DNA from: an uncultured bacterium
GTDB lineage: Bacteria > Patescibacteriota > Minisyncoccia > UBA6257 > GWB1-50-10
Direction: 5' to 3'
DNA length: 64,000 nucleotides
Assembly: GCA_963713955.1 (NCBI GenBank)
Contig: OY970216.1
Location: forward strand, 8,075-72,074
The notes under the pieces were generated by a model. It was not told where the DNA came from and did not search any database. It saw only the letters and a program-made list of their open reading frames with translations. This document shows, piece by piece, positions 28,434-54,390 of this stretch. A program made the translations under genes and the position numbers. Position 1 is the first letter of the stretch. Each line of letters begins with the position of its first letter.

Positions 28434-28964
28434 CTATCCAAGGAATAATATAAGTGGGCCGAAAATTTCAATCAATACCCCCACAATAAACCCGATGGTA
28501 GAGAAGACTATGACGAAAACCCAACCGATGACCCAGATAATAATTTCGATCAGGAATGGAAATTTAGCCGTGACGGTCGCAGTGCTACTGGCAGCAAGCT
28601 CCCTCCACCCGGCCGCAGGGGTAAGATTCCCATTGATGCAGTCTGCTGGATAAAGTACCGCTTTAATCTGGTAATTACCCTCAGCTGGCGGCTCCCATTT
28701 GTAACTGCCGCTTGATGGTAAGGCATAAGTGTGCACCGAGTACTGAGCCTTTGTAAAATATAAAATAACACAATATTCCCTGTTCGAAAGATTATAAGAC
28801 TCCCAAGTTATTGTGTAGGATGAATTAACAGAAGTCGTGTCTCCATCGTGATCAGGTGTTATTGTTAGCGTTATGGAAGGCTCATACCCATAGTCTTGGG
28901 CGCAAACCCTGCCTACCACTGTCAGTAACACGGTGGCTACAAGAACAACAAATAATCGCTTCAT
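28434..28964 (-). CDS. secreted / membrane-anchored hypothetical protein
   Basis: Signal peptide MKRLFVVLVATVLLTVVGRVCA and a C-terminal hydrophobic anchor. Confidence 0.4.
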   Translation of the reverse strand: MKRLFVVLVATVLLTVVGRVCAQDYGYEPSITLTITPDHDGDTTSVNSSYTITWESYNLSNREYCVILYFTKAQYSVHTYALPSSGSYKWEPPAEGNYQIKAVLYPADCINGNLTPAAGWRELAASSTATVTAKFPFLIEIIIWVIGWVFVIVFSTIGFIVGVLIEIFGPLILFLG

Positions 28965-37363: not shown

Positions 37364-38320
37364 CTATTGAAGCAATTTCCTCACAAAATTGCTTATATCA
37401 ATAAAGTTCTGATAAGCGCCTTTGACTTTCGCCAAAGACGAATTTACCAGATCTTTAATTGATACAACCTGAGAAGATCCTCCCGCCGCACCTGAGTCGG
37501 TGCTGGAACTTGTGGTCGCGGTGGATGTCGCTGACGACGAGTCGGATGTGGTGGTAGACGTCACCGTGGAAGAGGCTTCCAGAGCGGCAGTGCCCGTCGC
37601 AGAAGAAGTCGAGTCACTTCCCGGCGTGACTTCGGTGCTCGTGGAAGAAGTCGCCGTGAGGGGACTTACGTATCGTTCCAAGAATAAGTTGTAAGCCTCC
37701 CCATTCAAATCATTCGCTTCCTTTATGTCTTCCTTAGCCGCATCCAGCATGTCGCTGATCGTCTGCCGGTCCTTGGTCTTGAAGGTCAAAGAAGAAAGGT
37801 CCTTGGTTATATTCGTGAGCCTTTTTTGGGAAGTGTTTATTGCGGAAAATTCCTGCTGCACCAGAAGGAAATCCTGTACCTGACTGGTCAAGGGCAGATA
37901 GTCGGCATCCCTCCAGGTTTTAAAATCCTCGGCGACGGTTTTTATTCCGGCCAAATCAAGTGAAGAGGTACCGGTAATAAGTTGCCTCTCCGAATCAAAG
38001 TAAGAAAGATCTTGTTTCAACTGATCCGTTGAACTACTAACCCAGGCATCATAATCCGGATTCTTGGGAACTTGAAAAAGCTTAGATTCAAAATCCTTCA
38101 CCTCAGCGGTAGAGAGATCAAGAACTTGCTTGAAAGCGTTGATTCTCAAAGCTACGTCGTCCACGCTGCCTTCATCTTTGGCCGTGACGAGACTGTCCAG
38201 GGCGTCTTTCGCGTTCTGGAAAACCTGAGTCACCGGGCTCGCGTCGTCCGCCAATGCAACCCTCGAAAAGCCGAAACCCGCAACTATCAATATGAATGCC
38301 GATATTAAAACTTTTTTCAT
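37364..38320 (-). CDS. secreted protein with a Ser/Thr-rich C-terminus, encoded downstream of the ECF sigma and anti-sigma pair
   Basis: Signal peptide MKKVLISAFILIVAGFGFSRVALA; an S/T-rich low-complexity tail. Confidence 0.4.
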   Translation of the reverse strand: MKKVLISAFILIVAGFGFSRVALADDASPVTQVFQNAKDALDSLVTAKDEGSVDDVALRINAFKQVLDLSTAEVKDFESKLFQVPKNPDYDAWVSSSTDQLKQDLSYFDSERQLITGTSSLDLAGIKTVAEDFKTWRDADYLPLTSQVQDFLLVQQEFSAINTSQKRLTNITKDLSSLTFKTKDRQTISDMLDAAKEDIKEANDLNGEAYNLFLERYVSPLTATSSTSTEVTPGSDSTSSATGTAALEASSTVTSTTTSDSSSATSTATTSSSTDSGAAGGSSQVVSIKDLVNSSLAKVKGAYQNFIDISNFVRKLLQ

Positions 38321-39590: not shown

Positions 39591-39919
39591 GTGAATATTG
39601 AGTATTTATACGGAGCAGTTAAGACCTATTTTACCCAAAATTTCTGATTTTGGATACCCCCGAGCCTAGTCAATCACCCCGTCAATCACGATTGACTACC
39701 CTCACCCCTCTTTCGTCCAGATTCCACCGGGCTTTCCTCGAAAACCTTGTCCCCGACAATACTCGCCTCCGCCCCTTACCGGTGCGTCGGCTCGTCTCCC
39801 GCAGAGGCCGCCCCCATGGGAAGGGTCGAAGGGAAGGAATGGGGGGCGGCCTCTGCTTCACGTCGCGCGTCAGAGATGCTCCCGAGGCCGGATTGGAAAA
39901 GGGAAGCAAAAAGGAGGAG
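39591..39919. repeat. left copy of the roughly 330-bp near-perfect inverted repeat (partner at 51477-51804)
   Basis: The reverse complement of 51477-51804 matches almost base for base (the identical 82-aa ORF artefact MDTPEPSQ... appears in both copies). It contains the nested motif TAGTCAATCACCCCGTCAATCACGATTGACTA. Confidence 0.8.
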
Positions 39920-39959: not shown

Positions 39960-40793
39960 ATGCCCCGATACCGCAAGAGATTCGAGAGGAGCAAGGAGCC
40001 GCCCAAGAATTTTCGCATCCAGACGCGCGACTACGGCCTCCTCGCTGACATAGCTGGCTATGGGGTGCTCTCGACCGAGCAGATTTTCGCGCTTCACAAG
40101 GGAGGAGAAAGGAATCTTCGGCGGAGATTGGCCGCGCTCTATCACTTGGGATACATCGAGAGACCGAAAGCGCAAAAACTGCTTCCTCCCGGGAGCTTCA
40201 TCATCTATTCCCTCGGCAGAAAAGGAGCGGAGCTCCTTCACCGCGAGGAGTCCGTCGGGAAAAGACACCGCGAGGTTTCCTTCCCTCATCTTTCCCACGC
40301 TTTGATGATCTCGAGGTTCCGGTCCATCCTCTCCCTCGCCTTGAAGGGCGGAGACAAGAAGATCGAGAAATGGATGCAGGGCAGGGAGTTGTACGATACG
40401 CTCTCCAAGCGGGAGAAGACCGACCTCGTTCCGGATGCTTTCTTCACGGTCGAGAGCAAAGAATACAAGTGGCCCTTCTTCCTCGAAGCGGACATGGGTA
40501 CGATGACGCGGACGAAGATGCTCGAAAAATACCGGACGTACTGGCGGTGGTGGCGGGAGAGGCGGCACGAGCATACGCTCGGCATACAGAGATTCCGCGT
40601 CCTCACGATCGCTCCCTCGGAGACGAGAACGGAGAATCTCGTGAAAGCCGCGAAGGAGGCCGACGACCGGAGAACCGGCAGCGACATGTTTCTCTTTTTA
40701 TCGGAGACTGCATACTCCTTGAAGGAGCCGGAAGAAATACTGAAGTCCGTCTGGCTTTCCGCGAAGGGCGGAAGGCACGGAATACTCGAATAA
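39960..40793 (+). CDS. replication-relaxation family protein (Replic_Relax-like, N-terminal HTH)
   Basis: RDYGLLADIAGYGVLSTEQIFALH matches the N-terminal motif of plasmid replication-relaxation proteins; 277 aa. Confidence 0.5.
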   Translation: MPRYRKRFERSKEPPKNFRIQTRDYGLLADIAGYGVLSTEQIFALHKGGERNLRRRLAALYHLGYIERPKAQKLLPPGSFIIYSLGRKGAELLHREESVGKRHREVSFPHLSHALMISRFRSILSLALKGGDKKIEKWMQGRELYDTLSKREKTDLVPDAFFTVESKEYKWPFFLEADMGTMTRTKMLEKYRTYWRWWRERRHEHTLGIQRFRVLTIAPSETRTENLVKAAKEADDRRTGSDMFLFLSETAYSLKEPEEILKSVWLSAKGGRHGILE

Positions 40794-41010: not shown

Positions 41011-41258
41011 AATTGCGTCTCCCGTCGCTTAAAGGAAAAACGCGGGAGGCTTTAGGCTCAACGCTAAGCCCCGCGCATTTTTCCTTTCGCGGGGAGCGCG
41101 ACGGAGCGCGCCCCCCGTGCGATTCTGCCCTTGCCCCACCACGCCCGTGCGCGGGCAAGAACGCTCCCCGAAACTAGCAAAGGTTGACATTCTTTGATGG
41201 GATTTTGTAACATCCTCCCGACATCGTCCTTTCGGGCGGTGTACGGTGAGGGGGACTC

Positions 41259-41516
41259 TCACGAGTCCCCCTTGGTCTTTTCCGAAGTTACATCATTATC
41301 TGAAACCATTATCAACCTTATAACCCAATCTGAAAGCCAGACGGCTCCGGCTTGCTTCCCAGACTCTAGAAGAAACTGGTTCTGGGACGCGACAAGCGTT
41401 TCTTGAGTAGCGTTGGCGGATGACGGAGGCGCCGCATCGGTGGGAGACGACGCAAGTGCGATCTGTATGATCCAGAGAAGCAGAAAACCGATTACAACTC
41501 TCAAAAATTTCCCCAT
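41259..41516 (-). CDS. small secreted or membrane protein (pilin-like?), hypothetical
   Basis: 85 aa; signal/TM MGKFLRVVIGFLLLWIIQIALA plus a second mildly hydrophobic stretch. Confidence 0.3.
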   Translation of the reverse strand: MGKFLRVVIGFLLLWIIQIALASSPTDAAPPSSANATQETLVASQNQFLLESGKQAGAVWLSDWVIRLIMVSDNDVTSEKTKGDS

Positions 41517-41836
41517 GACTTTGAAGAAAAATTGGGTTGCTCGACCTTTATATTGGTTTATTAAAGAACTCCCCAGAGATTAAAAATCCCCCTGTCGCTC
41601 TTCGGTGGTACTTCAACCTGCGACAGGGGGTGTTTTGGTGCTAATTTTTTCGCTCTGCGCCAGAAATTTCTATCGAATAAACACCCTTAAGTTATGGTAA
41701 TGATAACAAACCGGTGGTGAAAGTCAACTTCGCTCTCCTAAAAACTTTGAATGTAGTAAAATAACTCCATATCCCTCGTGCCTCTTTCTCGGCACGACAC
41801 AAGGTCGAGAGTTCTATAAAAACAGCATAAAAATAC

Positions 41837-42541
41837 ATGTGGACGTTCATCTTAATCGTCATCGTAGCCGTCGTCGCGTGGAATGTGTACAAGAAAAAGC
41901 AAGAAGAACAGCAGGAAAGCGGAGCCTACGAGACCGCCGACGTCCCTCCGGAGCGGAAACACTTGAAACGGATGTCTCTCTCGGAGAAGTGGCGCACGGT
42001 GAGTAGCTGGACGACCCTCGTTCCCGGAGCAGAGGGAAAGGGAGATGCGATCTTCAAAGCCGCGAAGGAAAGTATCGGGAAAGCCGCGGCGCCGAACCTC
42101 GTAGTCGAGGAGCGGCGGGTTAGCGTAAACGACCTCGCGAAGAGGTACGGCGAGCGGCGGCTGCTCGTGGTCGAGAACCGGAAAATCCTCGGCTACTACG
42201 CCTTCGTCTCCGTCATGGATTACGGCCATCAGCTTTCCGTCTCGTGGTATCTTATGTTTCAGGAAAACTGGTTCACGAAGTTCATGAAGACCGCGGTCAA
42301 GGGCGGCGTGATCGCCTTCCTCGCCAACTGGTTCGTCGTAATCATGGCGAGAATCTTCTACGCCGCGAGGCGGTGCACCATCCCCGAACTCATGAACATC
42401 TTCGACGCGGAGGAATTGACCGCCTACACGACGACCGTCCACCACGCCGTAACGGGGGCGGTCGAGGAGCTGATGGGCGGCATGAACATGGACTTCTCGA
42501 GGGTGGACACGAGGTCGCGGGGATTTTTAAATATCTCTTAG
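41837..42541 (+). CDS. membrane protein; its stop lies one base before the ATPase start, so it may be the membrane half of a split coupling protein
   Basis: N-terminal TM (MWTFILIVIVAVVAW) and an internal TM (VIAFLANWFVVIMARIF). It ends at 42541 and the ATPase starts at 42543. Confidence 0.4.
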   Translation: MWTFILIVIVAVVAWNVYKKKQEEQQESGAYETADVPPERKHLKRMSLSEKWRTVSSWTTLVPGAEGKGDAIFKAAKESIGKAAAPNLVVEERRVSVNDLAKRYGERRLLVVENRKILGYYAFVSVMDYGHQLSVSWYLMFQENWFTKFMKTAVKGGVIAFLANWFVVIMARIFYAARRCTIPELMNIFDAEELTAYTTTVHHAVTGAVEELMGGMNMDFSRVDTRSRGFLNIS

Positions 42542-42542
42542 C

Positions 42543-43925
42543 ATGGCGGAACCGCGCATCTTCCGCCGCGAACCCAAGAGCGACGAACTCGCGCTGGGTT
42601 ACGCGTGGGGCGAGGACCAAAAAGGCGACCTCTGGCAATTGAAGGGCGTCGCGCAGGAAGACCGCGCCACCCATTTTTACGTGATCGGCGCATCCGGCAC
42701 TGGCAAGACGAAGTTCTTGGAATACATGATCGGGCAGGACATAGCGAACGGGGCGGGATTCGGTGTGATTGATCCCCATGGGGACTTGATCGAAGCCGTG
42801 AAAGAGCGGCTCGCGCTTTCCGGAGACGATCTCGAAAGCCGCGTCGTCCTTATCGACCCCACAGACAAGAAGAAGGTCGTCTCCTTCAATCCCCTCGAAC
42901 GGCTGGACGGTGTCTCCCCGGCGGAGCAGTCCGCCGAGCTCACGCTCGCGTTTAAAAAGATTTGGGCGGACGCGTGGGGCGCACGGATGGAGGACATTCT
43001 CCGCAATTCTTTCATCGCCTTGATTGAGAACGACCTCACCCTCGCGGAACTGCCCCTCCTGTTCGCCGATGCCGGACTCCGCGCGAAGCTCACGGCGAAC
43101 CTGAAAAACGAGACCGCGAGGGATTTCTTCCACAAGTTCGATTCGTGGAGCAAGACCTTGAAGAACGAGTGGACGGAATCCACCTTGAACAAGGTGAACG
43201 CCTTTTTGTCCGACGAGCGGGTGCGGGACATGTTTGTCTCGCCCAAAAGTTCCTTCAATCTGCGGGACGCGATTGATGCGGGAAAGATATTGTTGGTGAA
43301 ACTGGATAAGGGAAGATTGAAGGGCGCAAGCGACCTTCTGGGTTCGCTCATCTTGACGAAGCTCCAGATGGCCGCCTTCTCCCGGACGGACGTGAGAGAA
43401 TCCGAGCGCAAGCCCTTTTACTTGTACATCGACGAGTTCCAGAACTTCGCGACCGAGAGCTTCACGGACGTCCTCACGGAGGCGAGGAAATACAAGCTGT
43501 CACTTACGCTCGTGAACCAGAACTTGGGGCAGCTTCCCTCCGAACTCCGGGCTTCCATCCTCACGAACTGCGGGATACAGGCGTGTTTCCGCCTTTCCCG
43601 CTTCGATGCGGAGCTTCTCGCCAAAGAAGCGTTCGGCGGGGTGGCCGACGCGACCCCGCAATGGGAAAAAAAATTCCAGTTGCTCCAAGCCCTCCCTAGG
43701 CAGGTGTGCCTCGTGAAGAACAAGGCGGCGGGCGGGATTGTTCTTATCCGCGTGCCGGACATAGGAGACGGGATGGACGAGCGGGAGCTTGAGGCCGCCT
43801 TGCGGGAAGCAGGGATCGGAGAGAAATACCTCCGCAAACGGGACGAGATTAACAAGGAGTATCACAGAAGGCACGAGGCCTTAACGAAAACCGACGAGCC
43901 GGACGGGTTCAAGGAGAAAAGATAG
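42543..43925 (+). CDS. P-loop ATPase, TraD/TrwB/VirD4-like or HerA/DUF87-like (candidate DNA translocase / coupling protein)
   Basis: Walker A VIGASGTGKT; DPHGD motif; Walker B YLYIDEFQNF. Paralog of 50122-51420. Confidence 0.55.
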   Translation: MAEPRIFRREPKSDELALGYAWGEDQKGDLWQLKGVAQEDRATHFYVIGASGTGKTKFLEYMIGQDIANGAGFGVIDPHGDLIEAVKERLALSGDDLESRVVLIDPTDKKKVVSFNPLERLDGVSPAEQSAELTLAFKKIWADAWGARMEDILRNSFIALIENDLTLAELPLLFADAGLRAKLTANLKNETARDFFHKFDSWSKTLKNEWTESTLNKVNAFLSDERVRDMFVSPKSSFNLRDAIDAGKILLVKLDKGRLKGASDLLGSLILTKLQMAAFSRTDVRESERKPFYLYIDEFQNFATESFTDVLTEARKYKLSLTLVNQNLGQLPSELRASILTNCGIQACFRLSRFDAELLAKEAFGGVADATPQWEKKFQLLQALPRQVCLVKNKAAGGIVLIRVPDIGDGMDERELEAALREAGIGEKYLRKRDEINKEYHRRHEALTKTDEPDGFKEKR

Positions 43926-43940
43926 TATTTTTCTACACTG

Positions 43941-43969
43941 TTTGACATTATTGCTATATTATGGTATCA
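43941..43969 (+). promoter_or_regulatory. sigma70-like promoter upstream of the DGR target gene
   Basis: TTGACA, a 17-nt spacer, then TATCAT. AAGGAGG lies 5 nt before the ATG at 44038. Confidence 0.4.
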
Positions 43970-44037
43970 TATCAACATTCCTGAAACTTAGGAACGCATC
44001 TAAAAAACTTCATATTCACTAACCAAGAAAGGAGGCA

Positions 44038-44919
44038 ATGACGATGAATACTACATCGATCATGCCAATGACAGAAGGTCAAGAAAAGCAACTGAGTCGC
44101 GTCGTAATGGAGGACGAACTCTTTACACCGAAACCCACAAACGACGAAGCTCAGTGTCTTCTAAAGCACGGCAATATACTGCAAACGGCAGTCCGAATTT
44201 CCCGCAAGGAGATATTCGTCAAGTATCTCTACGCAGATGAGGAAAAATCGTCCGACTACACCTATCCCAAGGAATACAAGCGAAAATCAATCCGAGAGCA
44301 AATCGATATTCTTCTGGAGTGCTTCCCCGGATTGAACGCAACATGGGCTTTAATGAAGGGAGAAGCTTGGTACGACAGCCTGAAGAACTTGCCGGATTGG
44401 ATTGAAGGCCCGCTCGTCTATGTATGGTGGGAAATGTTCGGCAACTACAACGCCGCAACGGAACAGGTGCTCTCCGCTCTGGGGAAGAAGTACCAAAACT
44501 TCGTGAACTACCGGAACGGCCAGCTTGGACCAGAATACCTGCAACAGTCGAAAAAGACGACCGGTCTCGAAGCAAAGATTAAGAAGGACCAGCCTGGCGA
44601 TCTCATCATCGTCCCGAGTCAAGCCGGATTGCGCTGGAGGGGAAAATCTGTCCGTCGCGGCAGAGTCCTCTATGATCAGAACGAATTCGGTTCGGGAAGC
44701 GTCGCCGAAGGATGCCGAGTGCTGACCCATAATCGGTTCGTCCAATGGGAGCAACTGCACGTTGATTGCGGAGGAGACGAATACGCTCCTGAGGCCGATC
44801 GGGTTTTCTCGCACGCTCCGCACCTCTACTTCCTCGATAGCGAGATCGGGTTCGTCACGTACTGGATTGACTATGCCCATGGGCACTTCGGTTCGGCTTC
44901 CTCCCTTCTCCCGCAGTAA
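44038..44919 (+). CDS. DGR target (variable) protein; the C-terminal approximately 43 aa are encoded by the variable repeat
   Basis: The 3' end of the ORF (44787-44917) is the VR homologous to the TR. The gene has a strong RBS and promoter and is followed by a hairpin terminator. No signal peptide is evident. Confidence 0.7.
   Translation: MTMNTTSIMPMTEGQEKQLSRVVMEDELFTPKPTNDEAQCLLKHGNILQTAVRISRKEIFVKYLYADEEKSSDYTYPKEYKRKSIREQIDILLECFPGLNATWALMKGEAWYDSLKNLPDWIEGPLVYVWWEMFGNYNAATEQVLSALGKKYQNFVNYRNGQLGPEYLQQSKKTTGLEAKIKKDQPGDLIIVPSQAGLRWRGKSVRRGRVLYDQNEFGSGSVAEGCRVLTHNRFVQWEQLHVDCGGDEYAPEADRVFSHAPHLYFLDSEIGFVTYWIDYAHGHFGSASSLLPQ
44787..44917 (+). repeat. DGR variable repeat (VR)
   Basis: 131-bp alignment with TR 45299-45430: 17 mismatches, all at positions where the TR has A. 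The final approximately 30 nt are identical and GC-rich (IMH-like), ending at the target stop codon. Confidence 0.85.
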
Positions 44920-44992
44920 TCGAACATTGCACCTCGGACACTTGAACCTTTTGATGTCTTGTCCTTCGTTCCTTTCGTCCGCGTTATTTTTG

Positions 44993-45034
44993 AGAGGTTA
45001 TCCACACCATTGTGGGTAACCTCTTTATTTTTTA
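44993..45034 (+). terminator. hairpin plus T-run downstream of the VR/target gene
   Basis: AGAGGTTATCCACA-CCAT-TGTGGGTAACCTCT (14-bp stem with 1 mismatch) then TTTATTTTTTA. The stem contains a perfect TTATCCACA. Confidence 0.55.
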
Positions 45035-45298
45035 TAATCATGAATGAGACTAGGTTCATGAATGGCCGTCCACGGATTGCCGTCACCGAACTCCCTCTTC
45101 AATGAAGAGAAAAACAACCGGAATCTTAGCGACCACGGTTTCTAAGAGCGCGTTGTATTGAGGAGATTACTGCTTGTCCCCGTCTAGCGCAGGTTCCCGT
45201 TCGGGATGCTGCCGAATAAAATTCAGGATTGAGAGGATATAAGCTCCCCTTGAGCGGTAAACCTCGATTTCCAGTGATACGGACGGATGGGGGCAATG

Positions 45299-45430
45299 AT
45301 CCTGAGGCCGATCAAGTTTTCTCGCACGCTCCGAACCTCAACTTCAACGATAGCAAGATCAAGTTCAACACGAACTGGATTGACAATGCCAATGAGAACT
45401 TCGGTTCGGCTTCCTCCCTTCTCCCGAAGT
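45299..45430 (+). repeat. DGR template repeat (TR)
   Basis: Adenine-rich AAC/AAT/AAG-containing copy of the VR; the ORF-track entries 45229-45483(+) and 45223-45474(-) merely overlap it and are not believed to be genes. Confidence 0.85.
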
Positions 45431-45446
45431 CGCTCCTCAAGGAGGC

Positions 45447-45477
45447 AGAATGCCCGCGATTTATACGCGGGCATTCT
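45447..45477. terminator. strong hairpin between the TR and the avd stop (bidirectional terminator or TR-RNA 3' structure)
   Basis: AGAATGCCCGCG-ATTTATA-CGCGGGCATTCT, a 12-bp perfect stem. Confidence 0.5.
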
Positions 45478-45479
45478 CC

Positions 45480-45830
45480 TTAATTTTCTTTAGCCGATCT
45501 TATCCATCCGCCTAACATCCGGCCGATTTCATCCACGGAAGATTCGAGCGCCACATACTTTTTATTGTCTATGGTTTTCACTTCCTTCATGAGACGAAGA
45601 AAAACGCGCAGGAGATTAAGCTTGACGCTCGTCTTGTCTAAAACCGGCACTTTCTCCGATTTATAGAGTTTGCTGGCCGTAAGTATCCCCTCAAGAATTT
45701 CGAGTGTTAGTTCTTCCGATCTCTGCCAGATGGCGTACCGGTCTTGCTTGGGAACAATTGTGCGATAACCATAAAATGTTTTGTATAAGTCATAAGTTTT
45801 CTTGAATATGGGTATGTCAAAATCATCCAT
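45480..45830 (-). CDS. avd: Avd-like accessory variability determinant (four-helix-bundle, 23S rRNA-IVS protein family)
   Basis: 116 aa; C-terminal EIGRMLGGWIRSAKEN closely resembles the Bordetella phage bAvd C-terminus EVGRILGSWIARVNRK; it lies between the TR and the RT. Confidence 0.7.
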   Translation of the reverse strand: MDDFDIPIFKKTYDLYKTFYGYRTIVPKQDRYAIWQRSEELTLEILEGILTASKLYKSEKVPVLDKTSVKLNLLRVFLRLMKEVKTIDNKKYVALESSVDEIGRMLGGWIRSAKEN

Positions 45831-45844
45831 AAGTTTTACGCCAC

Positions 45845-46870
45845 ATGAAAACCTGCAAAAACATTTTTGAAAAGATAATCTCGCCAGAAAATCTTTTTTT
45901 GGCTTGGGACGCGTTCAAAGGCGACAAGCGGAATAAACCTGACGTTCTCCGGTTTGAATGGAATCTGGAACAGAACATTTTCCGGTTGCACGGAGATTTG
46001 AAAGATAGAACCTACCAGCATGGCCCCTATGCGAGCTTTTACATCAACGATCCGAAGCAGCGCCACATTCATAAGGCGACGGTTCGAGACAGGATTCTGC
46101 ATCACGCGGTTTTCTCGGTTATAAATCCAGTCTTCGAGCCGACCTTCATTCCGACTTCTTTTTCTTGTCGCATCGGATACGGCACTCATAAGGGTGTCGA
46201 GACTCTGGAAGAGATGATAAGAAGGGTAAGTAGGAATAATACGGCTCCCTGTTTTGTCTTGAAATGCGATGTTCAGAAATTTTTTGCGAGCGTAAGCCAC
46301 GAAATTCTGCTCTCCATTCTGGAAAAGAGAATTAAAGACGATGATGCAATGTGGCTTATGGGAAGCATCGTTAAAAGCTATGAGAGCGTGTCCAGGCGAG
46401 GCATCCCCATAGGGAATTTGACCTCCCAGCTCTTTGCCAACGTCTACATGAACGAACTTGATCAGTTTATGAAGCACGTGTTGAAGGTAAAATATTACAT
46501 TCGCTACACCGACGACTTCGCCGTAGTCGCTGGAGATAAAAAATATTTAGAAGAACTCCTGCCGCTTATATCCAAATTTCTTGAAAATAAACTCGCTCTC
46601 AAATTACATCCTAATAAAACCATATTTTTATCAATATGTCAAGGCGTAGATTTCCTCGGATACGTGATTTTCCCAAAACATAGACTTATCCGGTTACAGA
46701 CAAAGCATCGGATGTTTAAGAAATTGGAAAAACTGATGGAAGAATACAAAGCTGGAAATATCACCAAATTAAACTTCGAGCAGTCTCTCCAGTCTTATCT
46801 GGGTGTCTTATCTCATGCGGATACCCACACGATACGGGAAGAACTGTTGAACAAGTTCTGGATTTCTTAA
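45845..46870 (+). CDS. DGR-type reverse transcriptase
   Basis: RT motifs including IPIGNLTSQLFANVY (the DGR-specific I/LGxxxSQ in place of the group II QGxxxSP) and YIRYTDDFAV (YxDD); 341 aa with no maturase or endonuclease domains. Confidence 0.9.
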   Translation: MKTCKNIFEKIISPENLFLAWDAFKGDKRNKPDVLRFEWNLEQNIFRLHGDLKDRTYQHGPYASFYINDPKQRHIHKATVRDRILHHAVFSVINPVFEPTFIPTSFSCRIGYGTHKGVETLEEMIRRVSRNNTAPCFVLKCDVQKFFASVSHEILLSILEKRIKDDDAMWLMGSIVKSYESVSRRGIPIGNLTSQLFANVYMNELDQFMKHVLKVKYYIRYTDDFAVVAGDKKYLEELLPLISKFLENKLALKLHPNKTIFLSICQGVDFLGYVIFPKHRLIRLQTKHRMFKKLEKLMEEYKAGNITKLNFEQSLQSYLGVLSHADTHTIREELLNKFWIS

Positions 46871-46895
46871 CCTACGCTCCGCCTTTTTACCGACA

Positions 46896-47261
46896 TTACG
46901 TCTCTTCCTTTTCACGCTTCGGCGTCTCGTGCGGTATCTTTGCCGTATTGATTCCGATCTTCGCCATTCTTCCGCCTCCCGAGAAGAGGAGGAAGACAAA
47001 AAGATATTGGAGAACGATGTCCCCGAGCTTCCCGATGCTTTGGGAGACGACCGGAGGCACGCCGACCGATGTTTCTCCGAGATGGACGTTATTCACCGAA
47101 ACCGTGCTTTGCGCCGCGTCTCCTTTCCCTTCAAGAATGGAGGGGATATTGTTTCCGTGGAACACGCTGAACCCGTACCAGACGCCAAACCCGATTATCG
47201 CCGCTCCTCCTATAATGAGGATTAAGCTTAGGATGACGTAGTATTTCTCCTTGTGCTTCAT
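46896..47261 (-). CDS. small membrane protein, hypothetical
   Basis: N-terminal TM (YYVILSLILIIGGAAIIGFGVWYGF) and a C-terminal hydrophobic segment. Confidence 0.35.
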   Translation of the reverse strand: MKHKEKYYVILSLILIIGGAAIIGFGVWYGFSVFHGNNIPSILEGKGDAAQSTVSVNNVHLGETSVGVPPVVSQSIGKLGDIVLQYLFVFLLFSGGGRMAKIGINTAKIPHETPKREKEET

Positions 47262-47377
47262 TGAATTTTGATTATCCCGGCGCTATACAGGCCGAATTCG
47301 GCGAGCCAGAGCGCGGCGGATACCAGCACCCAGAACCACCAACGCAGATAGAGTTTGACTTTGGGTTTTTCGTTCAT
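47258..47377 (-). CDS. 39-aa single-TM micro-protein (not in the ORF track; ATGA-coupled to the downstream gene)
   Basis: MNEKPKVKLYLRWWFWVLVSAALWLAEFGLYSAGIIKIQ. Confidence 0.25.
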   Translation of the reverse strand: MNEKPKVKLYLRWWFWVLVSAALWLAEFGLYSAGIIKIQ

Positions 47378-47393
47378 GATATTTGTTTCAACG

Positions 47394-47546
47394 TCAGCTT
47401 AACGGCTGGTGCAGCGCAAGACGGATCGCACTAACGATAGCCGCAGCCACCAGCCAGCCGACAGCGAGCGCGGAAACGACCTTGAGAACTATTTTAACAA
47501 CCAACCAAAATTTCTTCATGGGTCCGTTTTTGGTTTTTCCGTCCAT
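47394..47546 (-). CDS. 50-aa single-TM micro-protein (not in the ORF track)
   Basis: MDGKTKNGPMKKFWLVVKIVLKVVSALAVGWLVAAAIVSAIRLALHQPLS. Confidence 0.25.
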   Translation of the reverse strand: MDGKTKNGPMKKFWLVVKIVLKVVSALAVGWLVAAAIVSAIRLALHQPLS

Positions 47547-47550
47547 AAGT

Positions 47551-47766
47551 TTATTTCGCATTGTTCAACGACGCAGAACTTAGAATGAAGTTCTGGATGA
47601 TGGGGCATCGCTCCGCTTCGTCCGCCGGAACGGTGAACGTGGCGTCCGGCTGGTATTCCTTGAAAGCGCAGTCCACGAGCGAAGGCGACGGCCCCGTTTT
47701 CCAGAGGAGGGTTACGGCGACCAGCAATACTACGATTATTCCCACTAACCAGATGAGAGATTTCAT
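47551..47766 (-). CDS. 71-aa small membrane/secreted protein
   Basis: MKSLIWLVGIIVVLLVAVTLLW TM or signal; overlaps the stop of the upstream gene. Confidence 0.3.
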   Translation of the reverse strand: MKSLIWLVGIIVVLLVAVTLLWKTGPSPSLVDCAFKEYQPDATFTVPADEAERCPIIQNFILSSASLNNAK

Positions 47767-48734
47767 TTCGTGAGGTTAATTGGAGCCATGATGATGGTAT
47801 CGCTCGCCCCGCCTTCATCGCCCATGGGGAGCAAGAAAGTTCCGCCACCCCTGTAGAGTTTGCCGTAGTCTCCCTGCTTGTACGAAATGATGGTGTAGCT
47901 CGGCTCGTTCATTATCATCGCGCCGTTTTCGTTCGTGCAGGTTGTGTTAATGGACAATATGCTGTCCGGCGTGAAGTAGGCGGTATTCGTGCTCGTGCTC
48001 TTGAGCGCGACCCAGCCGTTGTTCGCCACGCTGAAAGAGCATCCACTCTTATTCGCGCTCATCGTCACCTTGATCCTTGCGGGTCCGAAGACGTTCAGTC
48101 CTCCCCAGTTGGAGTTTATGATCCCATCGGACTCCAGCACTTCGGCCGAGACGCTCACGTCCTTCGCCGTTGACGATGCCGCAAAGGCGCCGGTCTTCGG
48201 AAGATCGGCACCCCCCGCCGCGTTCACCGCCGCGTCTTCCTCGCTCTTCACATACAGGGCGAGCTTGAACGTTGCGTCCGTGAACTCCTTGACGGCGGGG
48301 CAGCTGTTTAACTTTATGTTTTCGTCAGGCGTGAGGCCGAAGGACGAATCGTTCAAGTATTTGTTCATGTCCGAACCCAAGGCGTCCTTGAGACACTGCT
48401 GCACCGACGGAGGAGCGCCCGTCGAGAGAGTGAGCGCCGTGGTGCTCGTGTTCACGCAGCCGCTACTGCTCATAAGCTTTTGGGTCGAACTGGTTACAAT
48501 CCCTTCGCTGTATGCGGCATTGAAGGCATCGCCCATCTTGGACTGGAGGCAGGCCACGAACTCACTGCTCGTCGAGTAGAGGTCGATAAACGCTTGGAAC
48601 GGGTTCGGCTTCACGACTTGGGGGAGCTTGGCGGCGGCGAATTGCTGGACGGGGCGGTACAGCAAGAAGGCGGTTGCTCCCGCCGCAACAATTACGACGA
48701 TGACTACGCCTAAAATTATTTTGTTTTTGTTCAT
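47763..48734 (-). CDS. N-terminally anchored extracellular Ser/Thr-rich protein, hypothetical
   Basis: TM IILGVVIVVIVAAGATAFLLY, then a 300-aa Cys-containing beta-rich domain. Confidence 0.4.
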   Translation of the reverse strand: MNKNKIILGVVIVVIVAAGATAFLLYRPVQQFAAAKLPQVVKPNPFQAFIDLYSTSSEFVACLQSKMGDAFNAAYSEGIVTSSTQKLMSSSGCVNTSTTALTLSTGAPPSVQQCLKDALGSDMNKYLNDSSFGLTPDENIKLNSCPAVKEFTDATFKLALYVKSEEDAAVNAAGGADLPKTGAFAASSTAKDVSVSAEVLESDGIINSNWGGLNVFGPARIKVTMSANKSGCSFSVANNGWVALKSTSTNTAYFTPDSILSINTTCTNENGAMIMNEPSYTIISYKQGDYGKLYRGGGTFLLPMGDEGGASDTIIMAPINLTK

Positions 48735-50121: not shown

Positions 50122-51420
50122 GTGCGCCCCTTTTTGTATTTTCTGATGGACGACATCCTCCCCATCGGCAGGACGACCTCCCATTCGAGCGGGCTTGTCT
50201 TCGGAATCCGGACGAGAGACCGGCGACACCACATGTATGTCGTGGGGCAGACCGGCACGGGAAAATCGACTTTGCTCAAGAATATGGCGATAACGGACAT
50301 CCGGGGCGGGCGCGGCTGCGCCGTGATAGACCCGCACGGGGAACTCGTCGAGGACATCCTTAACTTCATTCCTTCTAAGAGGGCGAACGAAGTCGTGTAT
50401 TTCAATCCCTCGGATGTCGAGAATCCCATCGGCTTGAACATTCTCGAAGCGAGGGACGAGGAGGAAAAGCAACTGGTCGCCTCGTCCTTGATCTCGGTAT
50501 TCAAACACCTATGGAAGGGGTTCTGGGGGCCTCGGCTGGAACACGTCTTCCATAACGCCATATTAGCTCTTATGGATACGCCGGGGAGCACCCTCCTCGG
50601 CGTTTATCGTATGCTCGCGGACGACGATTACCGCCGCCTCGTCGTTTCCCACGCGAAAGACCCCATAGTTAGGTTGTTCTGGGAAAAGGACTTCGACGAA
50701 TATCCGCCTCAATTCCGCAAAGAGGTCGCCTCTCCTATCCAGAACAAGATCGGGCAATTGCTCACGAACACGCCCTTGCGGAATATCGTGGGACAGACGA
50801 CGAGCACGATTGATCTCAAATACATCATGGATAACCGGAGAGTCCTTCTCGTGAACCTCGCGAAAGGCAGAATCGGAGAAGACAAGGCGAACCTTCTCGG
50901 GTCCGTCCTCGTTACCAAGCTCTATTTGGCCGCTTTGGAGAGGCAGGCGATCCCGGAGGAGGAACGCAAGGACTTCTACCTCTACGTTGACGAGTTCCAG
51001 AACTTCTCGACGGACGTGTTTCCTTCGATACTCTCGGAGGCGAGGAAATACCGGCTGAACCTCATCTTGGCTCACCAGTATCTCCACCAGTTGACCGACG
51101 AGGTGCGGCACGCCGTCTTCGGAAACGTGGGCACTTTGGTCGCTTTCCGCGTGGGGAGCATAGACGCGGAGGAACTCGCAAGAGAGTTCCTGCCCTCGTT
51201 CGGGAGGAGCGACCTCGAATGCGAGGACAACTACCACACTTATATTAAATTGATGATCGACGGCAAGCGTTCGCTTCCCTTCTCGGCGGAAACGCTCCCG
51301 CCCCTCTGCCTTATGGGCGACGAGGCGAAGAAAGACATTCTGATTCAGGTTTCACGGGAGCGTTTCGCTTCAAAAAGATGCGAGATCGAATCCAAAATCG
51401 AAAAATGGATTGGCAGGTGA
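50122..51420 (+). CDS. P-loop ATPase, paralog of 42543-43925 (TraD/VirD4- or HerA-like)
   Basis: VVGQTGTGKST, DPHGE, YLYVDEFQNF; roughly 45 percent identical to the first ATPase. Probably a GTG start. Confidence 0.55.
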   Translation: MRPFLYFLMDDILPIGRTTSHSSGLVFGIRTRDRRHHMYVVGQTGTGKSTLLKNMAITDIRGGRGCAVIDPHGELVEDILNFIPSKRANEVVYFNPSDVENPIGLNILEARDEEEKQLVASSLISVFKHLWKGFWGPRLEHVFHNAILALMDTPGSTLLGVYRMLADDDYRRLVVSHAKDPIVRLFWEKDFDEYPPQFRKEVASPIQNKIGQLLTNTPLRNIVGQTTSTIDLKYIMDNRRVLLVNLAKGRIGEDKANLLGSVLVTKLYLAALERQAIPEEERKDFYLYVDEFQNFSTDVFPSILSEARKYRLNLILAHQYLHQLTDEVRHAVFGNVGTLVAFRVGSIDAEELAREFLPSFGRSDLECEDNYHTYIKLMIDGKRSLPFSAETLPPLCLMGDEAKKDILIQVSRERFASKRCEIESKIEKWIGR

Positions 51421-51476: not shown

Positions 51477-51804
51477 TCCTCCCTTTTTCCTTCCCTTTTC
51501 CTTCCGGCCTCGGGAGCATCTCTGACGCGCGACGTGAAGCAGAGGCCGCCCCCCATTCCTTCCCTTCGACCCTTCCCATGGGGGCGGCCTCTGCGGGAGA
51601 CGAGCCGACGCACCGGTAAGGGGCGGAGGCGAGTATTGTCGGGGACAAGGTTTTCGAGGAAAGCCCGGTGGAATCTGGACGAAAGAGGGGTGAGGGTAGT
51701 CAATCGTGATTGACGGGGTGATTGACTAGGCTCGGGGGTATCCAAAATCAGAAATTTTGGGTAAAATAGGTCTTAACTGCTCCGTATAAATACTCAAGTT
51801 TCAC
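51477..51804. repeat. right copy of the roughly 330-bp inverted repeat
   Basis: Reverse complement of 39591-39919. Confidence 0.8.
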
Positions 51805-52532: not shown

Positions 52533-52760
52533 TTATAAAAGGTCTTTAGGTCTTATACCTAACGCTTTTGCAATCTTTTCTATGTTCTTGAGTGTTGGGT
52601 TTCTTTCGCCGCGCTCTATCTGACTGATATAGGTTGAATGAACGCCCAAACTTCTCGCAATATCTCCTTGCGATAATTGCTTCTTGAGGCGGATGGCCTT
52701 GATCTGCTTTCTAACTCTTGTGGATATGTCCGTGTTCGCCATTGTTTTCATTATTATCAT
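52533..52760 (-). CDS. XRE-family (Cro/cI-type) HTH transcriptional regulator
   Basis: LSQGDIARSLGVHSTYISQIERGERNPTLKNIEKIAKALG. Confidence 0.75.
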   Translation of the reverse strand: MIIMKTMANTDISTRVRKQIKAIRLKKQLSQGDIARSLGVHSTYISQIERGERNPTLKNIEKIAKALGIRPKDLL

Positions 52761-52812
52761 AACAGTTGCCGTGCTATTGCTCTATGGAACGCAAATGCTC
52801 TATAATAGAACC

Positions 52813-54390
52813 ATGTCTACTTACTTCCTCTACGCCCGCAAATCGACCGACGTTGAAGACAAGCAAGTCCGGTCGATTGACGATCAGCTTTCAGTGCTTC
52901 GTACCCTTGCAAAAGACGAGGGACTACACATCGTTTCCGAGTTTGTGGAGAAGCAGTCCGCCAAGATGCCCGGTCGCCCCGTATTCAATAACATGCTTTC
53001 CCGCATTGAGAAAGGAGAGGCGCAAGGCATCGTCTGTTGGAAACTAGATCGGCTTGCCAGAAATCCGGCGGACGGCGGCACGATACAATGGATGCTCCAG
53101 CGGGGCATCATCCAACATATCCAAACCTACGAAAAGAGTTATAAGACAGCCGACAACACGCTATTGATGAGCGTGGAGTTCGGGATGGCGAACCAGTTCA
53201 TTCTTGACTTGGCTGCGAACACCAAGCGCGGCCTCTATGAGAAAGTGAAGCGTGGCGAATATCCTTCGCTTGCCCCTATCGGATACTTGAACGACCGGGT
53301 GAGGAAAACCGTCGTTGTGGACAGGGCGACGGCGAAGATCGTCCGTGCCGCGTTTGAACTCTATGCCGAAGGCAACTCACGATTGGAAGACATATCCGCA
53401 TTTTTTGCCAAACATCACATCTATTCCGAGAACGGCAAACCTTTGAAACGCGACCGGATAACCTACATCCTCTCGAATCCCTTTTATATCGGTTTCTTCC
53501 GCTACGCAAAAGAGCTTCACGAGGGAAAGCACAAGCCCCTCATTTCCAAGACTCTTTTCGACAAGGTGCAAGCCGTCTTAAAAGGGAGGGGCAGACCTCA
53601 TCACAAATTGCAGAACGAGCCGAAACCTCTTTGCGGACTGCTCTACTGCGCCGAGTGCGGATGCGCGATCACCGGAGAGGAAAAGGTGAAGCACCAGAAG
53701 AACGGCAACGTCCACACCTACCGCTATTATCGTTGCACGAAAAAGAAAGGTGCCTGTTCCCAGCCAAACGTTCGAGAGGAAAACCTTACTTTGCAACTAT
53801 CCGAGGCTATCAGACCATTCGCCCTTCCGTACGAATGGGCGGCGGAGCTTTCAAAGAAAGCTGATATGGATGAGCAAGTTACCCTCACATCTTCCGCCGC
53901 CCAGAGCCAAACGATACGGGACGAGATAACGGCCGTTTCCCAAAAGATCAAGCGACTTCACGCGATGTATCTAGACCAAGACATTGAACGGGAAAGCTTC
54001 CTTGAGGAGAAGGCGAATCTGCTTTCCCAGAAGAAGTCGCTCACGGAGAAAATGGCTGATGTTTCAAAGGGGGTGATCGCTTGGCTCGAACCGATGCGGG
54101 AATGGATAAAAGACGCGTCAAATCTGAACGATTTCGACGAAACCGCCTCTCTTTCCCTCACTAAGTCGTATACTCTTAAAATTTTCGGCTCGAACCTCTC
54201 TCTAAAAAACCGTCGCATCGTATTTAGCCCCATCAAACCTTATGCTTCGCTCCGCGAAGCCCGTGAAAATTTTGGGGAAAATAACCTTTGTGTGAAACTT
54301 GAGCGGGTAAGGGGAGTCGAACCCCTCTCATCAGCTTGGAAAGCTGAGGTAATGCCGATATACGATACCCGCCAACATCTTTTATCTTAA
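52813..54390 (+). CDS. large serine recombinase (resolvase catalytic domain, recombinase domain, zinc ribbon)
   Basis: YARKSTDVEDKQVRSIDDQ (catalytic Ser), APIGYLNDR, CAECGC...C zinc ribbon. Start set at MSTYFLY. The last approximately 30 codons are antisense to tRNA-Gly. Confidence 0.8.
   Translation: MSTYFLYARKSTDVEDKQVRSIDDQLSVLRTLAKDEGLHIVSEFVEKQSAKMPGRPVFNNMLSRIEKGEAQGIVCWKLDRLARNPADGGTIQWMLQRGIIQHIQTYEKSYKTADNTLLMSVEFGMANQFILDLAANTKRGLYEKVKRGEYPSLAPIGYLNDRVRKTVVVDRATAKIVRAAFELYAEGNSRLEDISAFFAKHHIYSENGKPLKRDRITYILSNPFYIGFFRYAKELHEGKHKPLISKTLFDKVQAVLKGRGRPHHKLQNEPKPLCGLLYCAECGCAITGEEKVKHQKNGNVHTYRYYRCTKKKGACSQPNVREENLTLQLSEAIRPFALPYEWAAELSKKADMDEQVTLTSSAAQSQTIRDEITAVSQKIKRLHAMYLDQDIERESFLEEKANLLSQKKSLTEKMADVSKGVIAWLEPMREWIKDASNLNDFDETASLSLTKSYTLKIFGSNLSLKNRRIVFSPIKPYASLREARENFGENNLCVKLERVRGVEPLSSAWKAEVMPIYDTRQHLLS
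54302..54372 (-). tRNA. tRNA-Gly (anticodon TCC)
   Basis: GCGGGTA-TC-GTA-TATCGGCAT-TAC-C-TCAGC-TTTCCAA-GCTGA-TGAG-AGGGGTTCGACTCCCCT-TACCCGC-T. The acceptor, anticodon and T stems are perfect; the D-stem has 3 bp. Confidence 0.7.

Follow-up and report, generated by a model that had tools for sequence, protein, structure and literature searches.

A stand-alone target protein without recognizable export signals in a diversity-generating retroelement of Patescibacteria

Introduction

In diversity-generating retroelements (DGRs), the RNA of a template repeat (TR) is copied by a reverse transcriptase (RT) together with Avd, errors are made at adenines, and the resulting cDNA replaces the variable region (VR) of a target gene. 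Two of the described targets are TvpA of Treponema denticola, which is a lipoprotein, and Mtd of Bordetella phage BPP-1, which forms the tip of the phage tail fibre. In Candidate Phyla Radiation (CPR) bacteria, DGR targets are said to have been first surveyed by Paul et al. in 2017, in Nature Microbiology. Here we describe the target gene of a DGR found in a 64,000-nt stretch of a Patescibacteria (CPR) genome, contig OY970216.1. This whole stretch is referred to as the window, coordinates count from its first letter, and homologue loci and homologue proteins are given L-numbers (L001 onwards) and P-numbers (P0001 onwards), respectively.

The targets of the CPR clade (clade 2 of Roux et al. 2021, Nat Commun) are typically without transmembrane or other domains, and whether they are genuine non-membrane targets was left to later work (PMC8144416). 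As summarized in a later paper (PMC10907252), the commonest CPR architecture in the 2017 survey is a fusion of C-type lectin (CLec) domain and AAA ATPase. Cytoplasmic DGR targets have been predicted in multicellular bacteria (Dore et al. 2024, PNAS, PMC10907252). The target in the window and its family resemble the clade 2 targets in having a CPR host, in belonging to a cellular rather than a phage-borne element, and in carrying the VR at the C-terminus. Both are also alike in showing no recognizable transmembrane segment, signal peptide or known domain, and the signal-less target of the window fits the documented pattern of CPR targets.

Results

The DGR cassette and its activity

The open reading frame (ORF) at 44038-44919 is, with near certainty, a DGR target; the DGR is complete, of the Patescibacteria type, and has this one gene as its target. 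It had been called a DGR target in an earlier note on this DNA, and the call stands: the gene ends in a VR that is repeated as a TR, the mismatches between the two are at adenines only, and genes for bAvd and an RT lie nearby. The parts of the cassette are as follows.

44044-44919, + strand: DGR target (variable protein) gene, an ORF of 291 aa (293 aa from the ATG at 44038)
44787-44917, + strand: variable region, residues about 249-291, repeated directly in the TR over 131 nt at 87% identity
45040-45299, + strand: conserved non-coding block upstream of the TR, from an alignment of the window, L011, L019 and L020
45300-45430, + strand: template repeat with 34 adenines, identified by its repeat pairing with the VR
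45354-45356, 45360-45362 and 45426-45428, + strand: TR AAG codons open to mutation to TAG, from the TR codon analysis
45447-45477, + strand: 12-bp hairpin just 3' of the TR and abutting the avd stop codon, from the terminator scan
45480-45830, - strand: bAvd (116 aa), encoded opposite to target and RT (Pfam bAvd PF22296, NCBIfam DivGenRetAVD)
45845-46870, + strand: DGR reverse transcriptase, 341 aa (Pfam RVT_1, E 1.9e-22; IGNLTSQ and YTDD motifs)

All 17 of the 17 mismatches between VR and TR fall at TR adenines. The TR encodes 22 variable codons, eight of which are AAY, and these specify about 3e19 amino-acid combinations. The bAvd protein scores 63.7 bits against PF22296 (cut-off 40) and 80.7 bits against DivGenRetAVD (cut-off 80), and the IGNLTSQ motif carried by the RT is diagnostic of DGR RTs. 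A block of about 260 nt before the TR is conserved in four cassettes, those of the window, L011, L019 and L020, the targets of the last three being just 39-49% identical to that of the window. There is no Rfam match for this block (45040-45299); it is probably the 5' part of the DGR RNA, and it may be structured.

The avd gene is wedged between TR and RT on the opposite strand, a layout that recurs in L011, L012, L019, L020 and L022. This orientation implies that the TR RNA and the avd mRNA are made convergently.

A second assembly (L022; ENA ERZ25039477, contig_143291) can be compared with the window over positions 41038-48019. Across these 6,982 nt the two are identical except for 10 substitutions and one 1-nt deletion, and all 11 differences lie inside the VR, between 44801 and 44885. 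The substitutions are without exception at TR-adenine positions (10/10); the alignment reports the deletion at a TR cytosine, and it is equally placeable at a TR adenine. Similarly, in a cluster formed by P0014 and six near-identical proteins, the differences are in the VR with few positions outside it. Since the two assemblies differ in the VR alone, the DGR is active, or was very recently active, on the target gene. The general DGR mechanism is supported at this locus by the exclusively A-site mismatches of VR and TR and by the VR-confined differences between the two assemblies; the RT and bAvd would copy the TR RNA with adenine errors, and the cDNA would replace the VR of the target. The L022 variant of the gene bears a frameshift in the VR.

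Start codon of the target

The target had previously been described as a 293-aa protein starting at 44038. The frame and its translation exist (the protein begins MTMNTTSIMPM), but the start is more probably the second in-frame ATG at 44044, which gives 291 aa. This start is favoured because the AGGAGG at 44030-44035 is only 2 nt from the ATG at 44038 and 8 nt from that at 44044, and because the public gene call of an identical 291-aa protein (P0001), whose contig measures 804,691 bp, begins at the latter. A longer N-terminus is impossible, as an in-frame TAA is present at 44020-44022, 18 nt before the first ATG.

Conserved expression signals

The target gene appears to be a self-contained transcription unit with strong, conserved signals, which are listed here in order.

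43942-43970, + strand: sigma-70-type promoter (TTGACA at 43942-43947, 17-nt spacer, TG at 43962-43963, TATCAT at 43965-43970)
43978-43994, + strand: 7-bp hairpin predicted close to where the 5' untranslated region (UTR) begins (UUCCUGAAACUUAGGAA), from an RNA fold of 43977-44060
44029-44035, + strand: Shine-Dalgarno (SD) sequence AAGGAGG, read from the sequence, 8 nt from the ATG at 44044
44992-45025, + strand: intrinsic terminator of the target, a hairpin (15-bp stem, 4-nt loop) and then a T-run, from the terminator scan

The promoter fits the sigma-70 consensus at 11/12 positions, has a TG extended -10 element, and is the top site between 39 and 52 kb. Only two sites of at least 11/12 occur in the whole 64 kb on both strands, and the target promoter is the only one of them with the TG; local shuffles predict 0.03 sites of at least 11/12 plus TG in 64 kb, where one was observed. 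The TTGACA-17-TATCAT promoter proposed in the earlier note is therefore present, with its position corrected by one base, from 43941-43969 to 43942-43970. Its further claim, that such an SD sequence is unusual in an otherwise SD-poor window, agrees with the count of well-spaced AGGAGG motifs before a first start codon, which are found at just 2/60 non-overlapping ORFs of at least 100 aa. The other of these two genes, at 28434-28964 (-), encodes 176 aa and has no Pfam match.

The signals were compared across 14 distinct loci, with homologues at 36-59% identity and 252 ORFs from the same loci as controls. An SD-like motif (AAGGAG(G), AGGAG or AAGGGG) is positioned 6-9 nt before the ATG at all 14 homologue loci (14/14), against 8.7% of the control ORFs. 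Promoters of at least 10/12 lie within 170 nt upstream at 8/14 loci (7.5% of controls), and promoters of at least 11/12 at 6/14 (3.2% of controls). Several of the loci have an extended -10 element, about half show ATGACGATG at the protein start, and in most there are two or three in-frame ATGs at the start. By eye, a post-stop hairpin with a T-run can be seen at the same place in the four aligned cassettes, the stem sequence of L020 differing. Because the promoter, SD and terminator of the target are conserved across the family, they are taken to be functional and not chance occurrences. The target thus has the promoter and strong SD of its own that had been attributed to it, a terminator can be added to them, and the signals are kept family-wide.

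In most homologue 5' UTRs a small inverted repeat can be seen by eye, in the unfolded sequences, between promoter and SD. In the window, the z-score of the whole-UTR fold is only -1.48 and the hairpin at 43978-43994 is statistically undistinctive, so that this hairpin is a matter of prediction. It is a possible mRNA stabilizer. RNase Y and RNase J are both encoded in the window, and in organisms with these enzymes, such as Bacillus, a 5' hairpin and a strong SD stabilize mRNA; the predicted hairpin and the SD of the target would fit stabilization of this type. The terminator hairpin (44992-45025) possibly doubles as the VR-proximal hairpin used for recognition of DGR targets, and may thereby have a role in retrohoming.

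Expression of the target would then begin at a near-consensus, extended -10 promoter that yields a 5' UTR of about 67 nt opening with a small hairpin. The AAGGAGG 8 nt before the ATG at 44044 would direct the start of translation, and the conserved hairpin terminator would close the unit. From these signals we infer high, and presumably constitutive, expression of the target.

A large family without assigned domains

A profile search with the target retrieved 2,059 clusters (50% identity) at E <=1e-3 and 1,060 at E <=1e-30, almost all of them about 280-310 aa in length and covered end to end. The homologues with a named source are all from Patescibacteria (Kaiserbacteria, Nealsonbacteria, Paceibacterota, Parcubacteria, Taylorbacteria, Pacebacteria and Saccharibacteria). 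The family has no match in Pfam (51 members, E up to 10) and the target none in NCBIfam, PHROGs, PADLOC or PDB sequences, which bears out the earlier statement that its N-terminal ~250 aa carry no recognizable motif. A phage origin was rejected, there being no PHROG match and no structural phage genes nearby, and membership of a defence system was likewise rejected for want of a PADLOC match. A profile of the C-terminal 109 aa, used to look for other architectures or annotated relatives, gave 289 matches; of the 120 listed, mostly short or fragmentary calls, 0/120 carry a Pfam domain.

The same cassette, in the order target(+)-TR-avd(-)-RT(+), is present at L011, L012, L019 and L020, where it sits among unrelated housekeeping genes. 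The VR/TR mismatches at these loci are at TR adenines in 10/10, 10/11, 13/13 and 18/20 cases, respectively, and the RTs in the same position of the cassette are 51-62% identical. At six or more loci (L001, L004, L016, L017, L018 and L021, with flanks of up to 10 kb) no RT, Avd or TR was found near the family member. Two proteins from RT-less loci, P0038 and P0025, recur without a single change on 11 and 12 contigs, respectively, from several samples. The RT-less copies may be fixed, non-diversified copies or remote targets. ORFs beside two of these orphan copies (293 aa in L001 and 291 aa in L004) were considered as paralogues and found to be unrelated. One homologue, P0058 (478 aa), consists of two tandem conserved cores, each of which ends in a VR-like region.

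Predicted structure

AlphaFold2, run with the family alignment, modelled the full-length target with a predicted local distance difference test (pLDDT) score of 92.4 and a predicted template modelling (pTM) score of 0.88; for the conserved core (residues 63-291) the values were 96.0 and 0.93. According to this model the target is a soluble globular protein, with three N-terminal helices (residues 11-62, variable in the family) followed by the conserved alpha/beta core (63-291), which has many helices. The VR, as the last 42 residues, forms a beta-hairpin with strands at 257-264 and 267-274 and then a loop at 277-281. Because the codons with TR adenines alternate along these strands, the variable side chains would point to one face, as expected of a binding surface.

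Foldseek searches of the target models against PDB and BFVD returned no significant match. For the core model, the first hit was TvpA, and ranks 2, 3, 5, 6 and 11 were C-type lectin-like domains, all with E-values of 1.2-2.7 and query-normalized TM scores <=0.27. The match to TvpA (PDB 2y3c) is not significant (E 1.2, probability 0.12, 48 aligned columns, query-normalized TM 0.14). A C-type lectin-like scaffold for the VR domain is only suggested by these model comparisons. The Pfam families FGE-sulfatase, DUF1566 and Mtd gave no signal in 51 members at E up to 10, and no CLec or FGE family appeared among the 120 listed of the 289 C-terminal profile matches. An Ig-like scaffold, which had been offered as the other candidate fold, is not borne out: the model is alpha/beta, no Ig protein is among the top Foldseek matches, and there is no Ig match in Pfam.

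Two other leads were rejected. Residues 195-202 (GLRWRGKS) fit the P-loop pattern GxxxxGK[ST] and lie in a strand-loop-helix, but the lysine varies in the family (K/R/E/C/Y), and hence there is no Walker A motif. A phmmer match to an engineered ubiquitin (Affilin) at E 0.003 was lost with the family profile and is treated as chance; at the matching stretch, the secondary structure of the model is also unlike what we take to be the ubiquitin fold.

Cellular location of the target

The lack of a hydrophobic N-terminus, reported in the earlier note, is confirmed by hydropathy and extends to the family. Taking a Kyte-Doolittle mean of about 1.6 or more over 19 residues as the threshold for a membrane segment, the highest 19-residue mean in the target is 0.92, and over 10 residues the mean peaks at 0.41 within the first 40 aa. 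By hydropathy, 51 homologues and about 170 full-length family representatives likewise show nothing like a signal peptide or a transmembrane stretch, and a hydropathy-based scan of the target and these representatives detected no Sec, Tat (twin-arginine), lipobox or prepilin-like feature. No cell-wall or S-layer anchoring domain was detected in the target or the family (Pfam, 51 members). Genes in the neighbourhood, for example those at 37364-38320 and 47763-48734, show plain signal peptides or membrane anchors, and export signals are therefore recognizable in this genome. The only stretch above 1.6 is an internal one, which has a Kyte-Doolittle mean of up to 2.1 in 20 homologues; it was rejected as a membrane segment, as it corresponds to a confidently modelled, buried helix of the core (EFGLGAFAIGIMLL). 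The conclusion on the signal peptide is the same with either start codon.

With the cytoplasm as the default location, it is somewhat likelier that the target stays inside the cell than that it leaves. The reading we prefer, at a probability of roughly 0.6, is that the target would be a cytoplasmic, abundant, stand-alone and diversifiable binding protein.

Several points weigh against this reading. Most characterized cellular DGR targets are surface-exposed (membrane-anchored) or secreted binders (PMC8144416). Within the otherwise variable N-terminus of the family a motif, [ST][IL][IT][ST], is conserved, and this might be a non-classical targeting signal. Three AAG codons of the TR (residues 267, 269 and 291) can mutate to TAG stops, and stop-prone AAG codons are odd for a well-tuned DGR, unlike the usual, stop-proof AAY. 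Finally, since the fold is unassigned, the term binding protein is used by analogy with other DGR targets.

The first two of these points speak for the principal alternative, a possible but clearly less probable one, according to which the target is exported or surface-displayed by a route independent of signal peptides and has an extracellular function, as an adhesin or receptor-binding protein that varies. An abundant surface component would be in keeping with its strong expression signals, and CPR bacteria, as a matter of general background, are episymbionts that need to attach to a host. The family-wide lack of hydrophobic, lipobox, twin-arginine and prepilin-like features and of anchoring domains argues against it, as does the gene content around the homologues: at the loci with flanks, no secretion-system gene was seen beside them (gene tables, with T4CP and relaxase searched by tblastn).

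A more specific route is suggested by the genes around the target, of which one, at 42543-43925, encodes an ATPase like type IV coupling proteins (T4CP) with T4SS-DNA_transf, TrwB_AAD_bind and TraG-D_C domains, and the others of interest are these.

39960-40793: Replic_Relax protein (Pfam)
41837-42541: small membrane protein
50122-51420: second T4CP-like gene (Pfam)

The target could be a substrate or partner of the ATPase, which ends 112 nt upstream of it, and pass through the conjugation-like type IV secretion system (T4SS) of the mobile element that carries the DGR; the membrane protein, the Replic_Relax protein and the second T4CP-like gene are all close by, and L022, from the same organism, has the same arrangement. 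However, tblastn found matches to the T4CP-like, Replic_Relax and membrane proteins of the window at 0/13 other distinct homologue loci, several of which are short or end just upstream of the target. A promoter of its own precedes the target gene, which argues against co-transcription with the ATPase, and while T4SS signals are usually C-terminal, the C-terminus of the target is the hypervariable region. Moreover, Pfam, PHROGs, NCBIfam and PADLOC scans between 39 and 52 kb showed neither VirB4 or VirB6 nor any other channel gene. Because the mobile-element neighbours of the target were found at none of the other homologue loci, within the sequence available for each, the T4SS route was rejected, and we regard it as improbable.

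Least credible of all is that the missing signal peptide is an artefact of a wrong start codon or frame, as might be suspected from P0006, P0018 and P0013, whose gene calls give them longer N-termini that are hydrophobic in part: their starts are placed too far upstream, so that the SD itself is translated (the extensions of P0006, P0018 and P0044 show it as '...ERRMTM...' and are not conserved), the AlphaFold2 model is confident from residue 11 onward, and in the target itself the in-frame TAA before the first ATG rules out a longer N-terminus.

Mobile-element context

The two T4CP-like paralogues (42543-43925 and 50122-51420) share stretches at 81-89% nucleotide identity, and each of them has a hit to PHROG 5156 (E 3e-41 and 3e-56) as well as to mad8, a PADLOC model. 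A pair of inverted repeats (39591-39918 and 51477-51804; 328 nt, 97% complementary) brackets 11.5 kb in which the DGR lies together with the Replic_Relax gene, both T4CP-like ATPases and several membrane proteins of unknown function. Folded as RNA, the repeat shows nothing notable on the + strand (z -0.29) and mild stability on the - strand (z -2.05), and it has no Rfam match. The repeats may delimit a mobile element or a segment that can invert.

Further along, a large serine recombinase (52684-54390, +; Resolvase, Recombinase and Zn_ribbon_recom domains) is encoded by an ORF that overlaps a tRNA-Gly gene (54301-54372, -), and a similar recombinase is found near the orphan homologue in L004. 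The recombinase beside tRNA-Gly, together with the relaxase-like and T4CP-like genes, suggests that the DGR of the window rides on an integrated mobile element. Inside the putative element, between two minus-strand genes of unknown function, is a full-length LOOT RNA motif (RF03000; 48810-48928, -; 83.3 bits, gathering score 46.4).

Discussion

If the target is cytoplasmic, the hypervariation that DGRs generate in such reduced symbionts would serve to bind ligands within the cell and not to attach, and the reading of their most enriched adaptive mechanism would change. A bolder version, which we consider unlikely at present, is that the family represents a new DGR scaffold, either a very derived C-type lectin or another fold, and that it would serve as an abundant, free-standing, antibody-like binder inside the CPR cell, for example against phage or host molecules or as a sensor of them. 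An intracellular binder of this kind would be a genuinely non-membrane-bound DGR target without a fused effector domain. The family is a clean test case for the question of non-membrane targets, being small, soluble and abundant in metagenomes, with a confident model, conserved expression signals and evidence of natural diversification at the window locus.

The comparison with described systems can be made at the level of the cassette and of the target. The cassette of BPP-1 (mtd-VR, avd, TR, brt) and the DGR of the window have the same four components and the same adenine-specific mutagenesis. They differ in that avd of the window lies on the opposite strand between TR and RT, that some 260 nt of conserved non-coding sequence come before the TR, and that the target has its own promoter and terminator. 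Like Mtd and TvpA, the target has a C-terminal VR that ends at the stop codon, with variable positions specified by Asn (AAY) codons of the TR; unlike them, it has no export or assembly signal. The architecture summarized from the survey of Paul et al. includes an AAA ATPase, whereas the family described here consists of stand-alone proteins of about 290 aa without an ATPase. The sensors of Dore et al. (PMC10907252) are DGR targets for which a cytoplasmic location is predicted, as is preferred here for the target. Their CLec domain is joined to a STAND NTPase or other signalling domains and the genes are part of conflict-system operons, while the target family lacks effector and NTPase domains and, beyond the DGR cassette, any neighbours that are conserved.

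As things stand, the target mainly confirms the pattern already known for CPR DGRs. What it adds to that pattern is a measure of how large the family is, the monocistronic layout, the conservation of the expression signals, the direct evidence of activity at the locus, and a confident structural model that standard searches leave unplaced among the known folds.

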